This document shows, piece after piece, positions 41,861 through 44,548 of a stretch of DNA of 64,000 bases; position 1 is the first letter of the stretch; every line of letters starts with the position of its first letter. Where the stretch lies: assembly GCA_964016885.1 (NCBI GenBank), contig OZ024743.1, forward strand, positions 365,986,001-366,050,000, in the 5' to 3' direction. The position numbers were made by a program, and so were the translations under genes. Below the pieces are notes generated by a model. It was not told the origin of the DNA. It searched no databases and saw only the letters and a list, made by a program, of their open reading frames with translations. This DNA comes from Eledone cirrhosa. Lineage: Eukaryota.

Positions 41861-41980
41861 AACTGTTTCAGTATGTAAGCGTTCTTTGGTTTCTTTTACA
41901 TATATATATATATATATATATATATATATATATATATATATATATATATATATGTATATATATATATATATATGTATATA

Positions 41981-43978
41981 TAGACATAGAATATTCGAAA
42001 ATATTCTGTATGTTTATAATAAACATTTTGAAGACCTAATCGCTATAGAATAGAATACGTCACGTATTACAATTAGATTCTCGATAAAAGCAAGGGAAGT
42101 AATCTACGCGTTTCATTCTTATTAGAAATCTTCAGGACTACATATCCAGTGCTTTTATCGAGAATGACACAGCTAGAGACTTATAGAATACTTAGCTGTG
42201 TACATGAACTGGTTTGAAAGAGCGGTTGCCGGTCCGGCAGAAATTAGAAATTGGAATAAATGCTCTGAAATAGCGATATATATGTGAATATAGACATAGA
42301 ATATTCGAAAATATTCTGTATGTTTATAATAAACATTTTGAAGACCTAATCGCTATAGAATAGAATACGTCACGTATTACAATTAGATTCTCGATAAAAG
42401 CAAGGGAAGTAATCTACGCGTTTCATTCTTATTAGAAATCTTCAGGACTACATATCCAGTGCTTTTATCGAGAATGACACAGCTAGAGACTTATAGAATA
42501 CTTAGCTGTGTACATGAACTGGTTTGAAAGAGCGGTTGCCGGTCCGGCAGAAATTAGAAATTGGAATAAATGCTCTGAAATAGCGATATATATGTGAATA
42601 TAGACATAGAATATTCGAAAATATTCTGTATGTTTATAATAAACATTTTGAAGACCTAATCGCTATAGAATAGAATACGTCACGTATTACAATTAGATTC
42701 TCGATAAAAGCAAGGGAAGTAATCTACGCGTTTCATTCTTATTAGAAATCTTCAGGACTACATATCCAGTGCTTTTATCGAGAATGACACAGCTAGAGAC
42801 TTATAGAATACTTAGCTGTGTACATGAACTGGTTTGAAAGAGCGGTTGCCGGTCCGGCAGAAATTAGAAATTGGAATAAATGCTCTGAAATAGCGATATA
42901 TATGTGAATATAGACATAGAATATTCGAAAATATTCTGTATGTTTATAATAAACATTTTGAAGACCTAATCGCTATAGAATAGAATACGTCACGTATTAC
43001 AATTAGATTCTCGATAAAAGCAAGGGAAGTAATCTACGCGTTTCATTCTTATTAGAAATCTTCAGGACTACATATCCAGTGCTTTTATCGAGAATGACAC
43101 AGCTAGAGACTTATAGAATACTTAGCTGTGTACATGAACTGGTTTGAAAGAGCGGTTGCCGGTCCGGCAGAAATTAGAAATTGGAATAAATGCTCTGAAA
43201 TAGCGATATATATGTGAATATAGACATAGAATATTCGAAAATATTCTGTATGTTTATAATAAACATTTTGAAGACCTAATCGCTATAGAATAGAATACGT
43301 CACGTATTACAATTAGATTCTCGATAAAAGCAAGGGAAGTAATCTACGCGTTTCATTCTTATTAGAAATCTTCAGGACTACATATCCAGTGCTTTTATCG
43401 AGAATGACACAGCTAGAGACTTATAGAATACTTAGCTGTGTACATGAACTGGTTTGAAAGAGCGGTTGCCGGTCCGGCAGAAATTAGAAATTGGAATAAA
43501 TGCTCTGAAATAGCGATATATATGTGAATATAGACATAGAATATTCGAAAATATTCTGTATGTTTATAATAAACATTTTGAAGACCTAATCGCTATAGAA
43601 TAGAATACGTCACGTATTACAATTAGATTCTCGATAAAAGCAAGGGAAGTAATCTACGCGTTTCATTCTTATTAGAAATCTTCAGGACTACATATCCAGT
43701 GCTTTTATCGAGAATGACACAGCTAGAGACTTATAGAATACTTAGCTGTGTACATGAACTGGTTTGAAAGAGCGGTTGCCGGTCCGGCAGAAATTAGAAA
43801 TTGGAATAAATGCTCTGAAATAGCGATATATATGTGAATATAGACATAGAATATTCGAAAATATTCTGTATGTTTATAATAAACATTTTGAAGACCTAAT
43901 CGCTATAGAATAGAATACGTCACGTATTACAATTAGATTCTCGATAAAAGCAAGGGAAGTAATCTACGCGTTTCATTC
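41981..43978 (-). mobile_element. Non-LTR retrozyme-like array: 6.45 x 310-bp monomers, each with a hammerhead ribozyme
   Basis: Units start at 41981, 42291, 42601, 42911, 43221, 43531 and 43841; no differences seen by eye; flanked by (TA)n on both sides. Confidence 0.88.
42077..42165 (-). ncRNA. Type I hammerhead ribozyme (first copy; repeats every 310 bp: six complete plus one partial)
   Basis: attctcgataaaagca-ctggatat-gtagtc CTGAAGA t-ttct aata agaa-t GAAACGCGTA^gattac-ttccct-tgcttttatcgagaat. Predicted cleavage between 42105 and 42104. Confidence 0.9.
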
Positions 43979-44548
43979 ATATATATATATATATATATAT
44001 ATATATATATATATATATATATAGAGAGAGAGAGAGAGAGAGAGAGAGAGAGAGAGAGAGAGAGAGAGAGAGAGAGAGAGAGAGAGAGAGAAATGATGAA
44101 TATAAAATGAAAGTGCTTTTATTCATCTCTAACGTGACGATATATTATCACTACATTATTGATAACTTGAAATTTTATATATATATATATTATTTTGCCG
44201 TTCCTGGGACTTTAGCCCTAGGAAAGGAAAATGCTTCTCTGATGAACTTTGCTTTTCCATTAGAAATCCAATGGATTTCTAGTGTTTTGCAAAGGGAAAC
44301 CGATCGGTAAGGGCGACTTGAGTAGGTAAATATTTAAATTATATTTTCTAATTTATTTAAAAAAATTGGTTAAATTTTGCTTGTTCTGCTTATCTTAATA
44401 TATATATATGTATTTAGGTTTGTTAGTTTACCACTGGATAGAACTGATCATTCCGTATGGTCAACCTCGATGTAATATTAGGGAGAGCACTCGACGTAAT
44501 GCAACTCACCCGTCTTCGTTGTGTTGGTGGTGCGAGTACGGAGTTAAT

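Follow-up and report, generated by a model that had tools for sequence, protein, structure and literature searches.

The window, a stretch of 64,000 nucleotides of the Eledone cirrhosa genome (assembly GCA_964016885.1, contig OZ024743.1), carried a tandem array of a 310-bp hammerhead-bearing unit, inserted as a single arm into an (AT)n microsatellite. Unit positions were numbered on the minus (RNA) strand from m1, the first base 3' of the hammerhead cut, and the array and its parts were located as follows.

41900-41965, no strand: left portion of the (AT)n target microsatellite, interrupted by GT
41966-41977, no strand: priming zone at start site A, where the (AT)n target runs in register with m128-139 of the unit
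41978-43978, minus strand: retrozyme array, a single arm of 6.45 units of 310 bp, from m127 (3' end) to m297 (5' end)
42079-42163, minus strand: long stem m13-26 / m252-265 either side of the ribozyme, from the fold and variant pairing
42099-42141, minus strand: type I hammerhead, the first of six complete copies (the next ones at +310 each), from motif and stems
42180-42356, minus strand: module m59-235 spanning both start sites, from blastn matches to older related repeat families
42243-42252, minus strand: start site B (m163-172), present in each unit
42276-42298, minus strand: UA-rich tract m117-139, present in each unit and containing start site A
43959-43978, minus strand: seventh hammerhead, cut off by the array end
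43979-44091, no strand: right part of the target, (AT)22 and then (AG)34

The array showed no mismatch to the 310-bp unit across 2001 bp, its units thus being identical and their number non-integer as the earlier note had described, and TRF returned a period of 310 with 6.5 copies. The unit had a GC content of 34% (104/310), and no open reading frame of 120 aa was present across the array. Seven cut sites were spanned (about + 42104-42105, 42414 ... 43964). The 3' end at m127 lay inside the TA-rich tract m117-139, and the 5' end at m297, in the 3' strand of stem II, was joined to the right part of the target (43979 onwards) without microhomology. Site B was unused in the window copy; the partner arm uses it in all inverted pairs. 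On each sequence feature checked (tandem units, hammerhead, dispersal and self-pairing) the window element is classified as a member of the non-LTR retrozymes. Elsewhere in the window, positions 28581-36925 held tandem RT-bearing copies of a non-LTR retrotransposon with several long frames.

The hammerhead motif GTAGTC-CTGAAGA-TTTCT..AGAAT-GAAAC-GC-GTA/GATTAC (the slash marking the cut) occurred on the minus strand of every unit. With a core of CUGAAGA and GAAAC, a helix I of 6 bp, a helix II of 4 bp, a minimal palindromic helix III (ACGCGU) and a GUA cut, its geometry was that of the canonical metazoan type I hammerhead, which is active as a dimer (PMC4209133). Rfam gave no window match at the gathering threshold, and its hammerhead clan CL00010 only a sub-threshold one (E 0.15, 17 bits versus a cut-off of 52). 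The isolated 61-nt hammerhead folded no better than shuffles (z -0.30), as expected because helix III is minimal. The circular fold of the monomer reached -68.7 kcal/mol (z -5.4 versus 100 shuffles), and the long stem m13-26 / m252-265 is predicted to close the monomer into a compact circle. Pairing in this stem was kept by 5/5 array-wide variants versus 9/33 single-unit changes (p 0.004), and the hammerhead was broken by 0/9 array-wide variants versus 11/13 single-unit changes (p 2e-4); the ribozyme motif is under constraint across the family. Array-wide changes were also A>G-biased on the RNA strand (12/32 versus 9/122 single-unit changes, p 8e-5; polarity at three columns taken from the commonest letter). 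The bias could come from editing or from selection for G-U pairs, and an RNA stage is needed in either case. Two related CTGATGA...GAAATATATATA motifs with a GTACC/GGTAC stem at window positions 40850-40900 and 55373-55423 (plus strand) may be minimal hammerheads belonging to another family.

A DNA search of the same genome with the unit gave 267 scored matches, and one exact junction type was present in 1006 copies genome-wide, from which the family is estimated at more than 1,000 insertions; as this junction type represented 24/54 free ends of its class, about two thousand insertions may be expected. Judged from these sequences, it is a young, numerous, multi-copy and dispersed mobile family. 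The loci studied were the window and 120 stretches, of which 20 were found by whole-unit match, 60 were anchored on one junction and 40 mostly on the other, the anchored ones all from contig C1. The resulting set of 122 insertions comprised 108 inverted pairs, 8 single arms and 6 with gaps or at edges that were set aside, with two small inner fragments of L051 left out; 17 later loci judged by eye brought the total to 139 insertions on many contigs. Three of the loci (L275, L280 and L283) formed a distinct subfamily with a 2-base insertion at m30 and about 12 more changes that kept the two-end anatomy. The window array was among the 8 single-arm copies of the 116 complete insertions. Because inverted pairs made up 108/116, a copy with one site-A arm is a minority form, and the single array that had been taken as the product fits the window itself but not the typical insertion, which is an inverted pair.

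Older related families shared m59-235 at about 72-80% and ended at both start sites, with blastn matches in L038, L046, L056, L087, L106, L110, L143, L148 and at window positions 38885-39015; this module is likely the recognition region for a protein of Penelope-like elements (PLEs). The window relative (38846-39285, plus strand) was decayed, 74% alike over m59-194, had about 1.3 units between microsatellites and a degenerate hammerhead region. Runs X4, X5 and X6, labelled as three other organisms, held contigs of exactly 340 bases, 95-99% alike, and judging by these contigs the retrozyme family or its DNA occurs beyond the Eledone cirrhosa assembly. The unit appeared in four contig runs with its commoner alleles and with loose (TA)n ends; these runs were uninformative on expression.

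Both 3' ends of the inverted pairs pointed outward into (TA)n, and every pair combined one site-A arm (m125-139) with one site-B arm (m165-172; 108/108), apparent B ends at m154 and m157 being an effect of variants. The same rule held for 18/18 pairs in the set without end anchoring, whose 21 loci had 39/39 3' ends in the clusters m125-139 and m165-172, for 3/3 set-aside loci once extended, and for the 13 closed pairs among the 17 later loci, of which two came from the diverged subfamily and one A end lay at m114. An (AT)4+ tract was present within 25 nt of the arm 3' end in 221/224 cases, and (TA)n at the 5' flanks of 8/8 solo arms; because the target is (TA)n, a TSD is unreadable. The family therefore inserts into (TA)n by a two-site rule with one end at each site.

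At site A the first copied base was m129 in 30/74 free ends and m131 in 22/74 (flank counted from A), and at site B m163 in 24/54, followed by m167 in 9, m169 in 8 and m170 in 5, giving an A-B spacing of 32-34 nt. Site A offers 8 bp of UA pairing to a (TA)n primer, and starts behind one pair and a mismatch (30/74) were as common as starts behind the perfect 8-bp tract (22/74); site B, with about half of all ends, pairs with the primer over 0-2 nt. Since site B offers so little homology and imperfect starts at site A are equally common, the start position looks protein-set, with annealing at most a helper. The earlier note had proposed that a nicked (TA)n target annealed to the UA-rich tract of the RNA, citing an 18/20 match of the left flank to the unit's own tract. 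Annealing is possible at site A, but the second site and the imperfect A starts speak against it as the general primer. The match count was real but overstated, as 8 of the 18 bases (41978-41985) belong to the element itself; the 12 flank positions left (41966-41977) match m128-139 at 10, one of them a G:C, where pure in-phase (AT)n would give 9. The placement of the 3' end at an internal TA-rich segment past the cut was borne out by m127 and by clustering beyond chance, and the pattern proposed as a check, clustered 3' ends with varying 5' ends and copy number, was found with two clusters instead of one. Synthesis in one event primed from (TA)n, as the note had it, is well supported.

The 5' ends occurred throughout the unit, slightly more often in m1-155 (chi-square p 0.014), and did not accumulate at the cut (4/187 versus 4.8 expected). 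The stop at 43978 in stem II was thus correctly placed, at m297, but is not special. Stem II as a preferred stop was rejected, since the peaks at m211 and m295-296 were haplotype artefacts that disappeared with each array's own period. Arms had a mean length of about 4.8 units and a median of 3.4, with the longest reaching up to 27-45 units. The arms were joined through 0-16 nt of microhomology or short filler: in the 68 joins without filler mean microhomology was 2.5 nt versus 0.77 for random joins, and the remaining joins held filler, mostly pieces of the unit and twice foreign DNA. Unrelated DNA had been captured between the arms of L114 (1648-1919, 272 bp) and L134 (6030-6083, 54 bp). Fold-back copying of one arm from the other was ruled out, because either arm can be longer (A in 50/108), the ends differ by site, and 95/102 testable variants were not common to both arms.

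The 96 insertions of at least 4 units carried 33 haplotypes, each fixed through both arms, so that there is one haplotype per insertion event. Across 102 loci, the number of differences between units was 0.40 inside a locus, 0.33 from one arm to the other and 3.54 from locus to locus, the within-array identity above between-array identity that had been anticipated. Single-unit changes amounted to 0.13 per unit with no trend along the arms (flat by rank at 0.09-0.17 per unit, with one class at 0), and the divergence gradient named earlier as a refutation was absent. Within arrays, 17 intermediate variant-locus cases stood against 150 singles. Because read-through of a multimer offers no way for a new variant to become fixed in all units, a one-unit bottleneck with subsequent amplification must recur. 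Five sample-private variants were checked genome-wide, and only A216G was private to one array, L140, where it was fixed in 18 units; A88T, A158G and a 2-base deletion each marked a clade of 3-9 arrays, and a subfamily with 361 matches was characterised by A118G. With 4/5 recurring in other arrays, private variants were no longer used to count monomer events directly, and new fixed variants arise at a lower rate than had appeared from the sample. In the nine-locus clade of the 2-base deletion (51d2), 2/5 loci read had gained a further change in every unit, and A158G, A20G, A259G and A276G were fixed on several backgrounds. No convincing source unit was found for a fixed variant; the single candidate, A88T in one unit of L273, had the background of three fixed arrays but also a cleavage-triplet change absent from them.

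The two arms shared few non-fixed variants. Sharing at the same rank was found at 7/102 testable non-fixed sites, in four loci, where about 21-43 would be expected under linear multimers (326 unit-equivalents covered by both arms, with parents assumed to carry half to all of today's load). A non-fixed variant common to both arms was present in seven loci (L063, L072, L081, L098, L126, L273 and L287). L098 switched haplotype at rank 3 in both arms, A200T alternated in both arms of L287, and the switches in L072 and L098 came in blocks. Such variants could reflect multimer templates, conversion between arms or the misreading of a modified base, and L287, L098 and L072 are the best candidates for dimer or multimer templates. 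Since one monomer circle cannot yield the rank-3 switch of L098 or the alternation of L287, these loci count against a pure monomer circle. Arms longer than about 19 units contained repeated variant blocks (L085, 45 units, offset 27; L063, offset 7; L278), which indicates that DNA-level turnover or assembly error acts later.

The Eledone cirrhosa genome also contained an intact Neptune-like PLE family with a 775-aa frame, a CxxC linker and many identical copies; in Pfam the frame scored 27.6 bits for RVT_1 (under the 29.6 cut-off) and over the cut-off for GIY-YIG. This family bears a hammerhead of its own, and its two ends lie near +123 and +178 (55-nt spacing); 9/9 inverted pairs combined one near and one far end, one per arm. 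In L173 (7203-8630, minus strand) and L165 the 775-aa RT-EN frame was preceded, with overlap, by a 476-aa frame, a two-frame arrangement in which the first frame had no convincing Pfam match. A window fragment (4354-6170, plus strand) of this young intact family comprised the RT end and GIY-YIG; its hammerhead lay near 5990, and its 3' end fell within (TA)n. Another young PLE-like family was represented at window positions 61624-63162 (plus strand); its intact copies encode 830 aa and have a long 3' region in which no canonical hammerhead was seen by eye. Several Neptune-like families carried variant hammerhead cores (UUGAUAA or UUGAAAA with GAAACCGGUA) downstream of their GIY-YIG frames in L177-L205, and such cores also occurred in an older retrozyme relative (L056). 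The pLTR of the intact Neptune-like family was unrelated to the 310-bp unit. More widely, 116 PLE loci, a small sample of the tens of thousands of candidates, showed no pLTR homology that would identify a partner PLE; here the monomer was compared with 26 loci of the young Neptune-like family, and the monomer and three older relatives with 30 GIY-YIG loci and 60 loci of two other PLE families. Matches in L164, L178 and L182 look like separate related repeats.

The insertions are probably best explained by target-primed copying of one monomer circle by a PLE from both broken ends. The array would be transcribed and then cut into monomers by the dimer-active hammerheads, a step suggested by the constraint on the motif and by the literature, and the monomer would be ligated into a circle as demonstrated for other retrozymes (PMC7229834). 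A PLE dimer may bind the m59-235 module and cut both strands of the (TA)n target, after which one end would prime at site A (m129-131, 8 bp of UA pairing possible) and the other at site B (m163-170, 0-2 bp). Each RT would run about 4.8 laps on average (median 3.4) and stop anywhere, and the two cDNAs would be joined head to head through microhomology or filler of the kind seen at the joins. In the window only the site-A end would have been extended, or the other arm lost, with its cDNA attached to the (AT)n end on the far side. Some templates, a minority, may be multimers, and arms above about 20 units may have been reshuffled later at the DNA level. The PLE as enzyme, the circularisation and the repeated laps are the steps deduced from sequence, and the circular template of the earlier note remains the best supported one, with the seven loci above as a sign of multimers. 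A more specific version, which we hold tentatively and at somewhat less than an even chance, has the RTs of a PLE dimer loaded asymmetrically, 34 nt apart, on one covalently closed and sometimes A-to-I edited 310-nt RNA, running up to tens of laps and producing a mirror-image satellite in one step. If true, rolling-circle target-primed reverse transcription in an animal germline would be proved from genomic sequence, the PLE tail would be the expression of an obligatory one-end-each rule, and the PLE-type hammerhead would gain a required role.

The earlier note had also argued that a linear self-cleaved monomer cannot template copies across the cut; this is true, yet is no proof of a circle, because an uncleaved multimer can do so too. 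It is conceivable, although unlikely, that the two-ended PLE insertion usually used a linear or circular multimer, from uncleaved read-through or as a concatemer made from a circle by RNA-to-RNA copying, and that the RT never circled. The seven loci with non-fixed variants in both arms, above all the L098 switch, agree with such templates, as do an L273 arm that stops exactly at m1 and the recurrence of 4/5 tested variants in several arrays; hammerheads with a minimal helix III are described as slow to cut (PMC4209133; PMC7229834), and uncut RNA was the main PLE substrate in vitro (PMC11167929). Read-through, however, can neither fix a new variant in all units nor outgrow its parent, and the 33 haplotypes are fixed throughout their arrays, further fixed changes continue to arise in small clades, same-rank sharing is well below the expectation given above and the ribozyme constraint argues that cutting is needed. 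Against RNA-to-RNA copying, the A>G bias lies on the sense strand and gives no hint of an antisense stage. At the DNA level, a homogeneous concatemer that had been produced from a circle prior to insertion would be indistinguishable from repeated laps.

End-to-end jumps of non-LTR RTs usually leave added or lost bases at the junctions. Repeated jumping of the RT from the 5' end of a linear self-cleaved monomer back to its 3' end, in effect a non-covalent circle, would account equally for homogeneity and the need for the ribozyme if one molecule were reused, jumps between molecules could give the block switches of L072 and L098, and array-wide variants at m2 do exist (A2G, 2+C and 2+T). We nevertheless regard it as very improbable: the 1130 cut-site crossings had no indel scars, an argument against such jumps, and 4 stray substitutions where background predicts about 3, stops were not in excess at m1, and mixing of unit haplotypes was rare despite the 33 haplotypes. 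A preprint (bioRxiv 2026.07.22.740005) proposes that a short insertion grows in place into a satellite through unequal crossing over or slippage. Such growth fits the repeated blocks of the arms above about 19 units, but can scarcely be credited as the source of the arrays, given one haplotype in every unit of both inverted arms, variants that are fixed or single and rarely intermediate, no gradient along the arms and a window array without any differences. Satellite-type growth is a secondary process in a few long arms and not the origin.

The element class and the circle-plus-PLE model are already in print. Metazoan non-LTR retrozymes are described as tandem, non-coding, low-GC units of 150-450 bp with a type I hammerhead and PLEs alongside (Cervera and de la Pena, 2020, PMC7229834; PMC7761336; Li et al., bioRxiv 2026.07.22.740005), it has been hypothesised in print that a PLE reverse-transcribes their circRNA over more than one unit length (PMC7229834; PMC4209133; PMC7761336), and the 2026 preprint ties retrozymes to pLTRs and proposes local amplification by unequal crossover (bioRxiv 2026.07.22.740005). 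The origin of hammerhead-bearing tandem repeats in animals, a question dating from the newt satellite, has competing published models, circRNA-templated PLE reverse transcription (PMC7229834; PMC4209133) versus local satellite growth (bioRxiv 2026.07.22.740005). Because the present family is young and numerous, its sequence can decide between them, the deciding features being PLE-tail ends, arrays that were multi-unit at birth with one haplotype in both arms, and a constrained ribozyme. The strict PLE integration rule of one end per start site, in 108/108 retrozyme and 9/9 PLE pairs, bears on a point that in vitro work left unresolved, and the 310-nt template with mapped start sites is usable for a direct assay.

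The family resembles the metazoan non-LTR retrozymes in its tandem 310-bp non-coding units, 34% GC, type I hammerhead, self-paired monomer and the PLEs in the genome. From what those accounts were found to describe it differs in the inverted two-arm insertions, fixed 3' starts, tail and microsatellite target, TSDs being reported there "when present", and in having no related PLE pLTR in the loci searched. Neither inverted two-arm retrozyme insertions nor tail-type ends on them were described in the literature searched (main texts, mostly open-access); supplementary material possibly bearing on retrozyme arms includes Fig. S9 of PMC7229834 and the tables of bioRxiv 2026.07.22.740005. In the MRC1-like non-autonomous Chlamys PLEs of green algae, which are PLE-mobilised with multicopy head-to-tail insertions (PMC8557442), canonical hammerheads are mostly lacking and the 3' end is similar to that of the autonomous partner. 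Insertions of Neptune/Naiad PLEs have an inverted 5'-truncated partner copy and a 30-40 bp tail at one end, with TSDs hidden by (TA)n targeting (Craig et al., 2021, PMC8557442). The inverted partner, tail, (TA)n and hammerhead upstream of the 3' ends are common to both, whereas the present family has no ORF, a 310-bp unit instead of about 4 kb, multi-unit arms and a tail on exactly one arm of every pair. During in vitro TPRT by PAc (Poseidon, green anole) both strands of an AT-rich target are cut and extended (Frangieh et al., 2024, PMC11167929). On both cut strands the RT started at two neighbouring internal positions a 30-40 nt tail apart, and a dimer was predicted; the starts were not homologous to the target and were the same on both strands, and the hammerhead was dispensable for in vitro insertion, uncut RNA being preferred (PMC11167929). 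The AT-rich target and two internal starts a tail apart are shared with PAc, and by this analogy the A-B spacing of 32-34 nt is the PLE tail. Unlike in PAc, one site here can pair with the primer over 8 bp, the two ends of an insertion never share a site and the ribozyme shows constraint.
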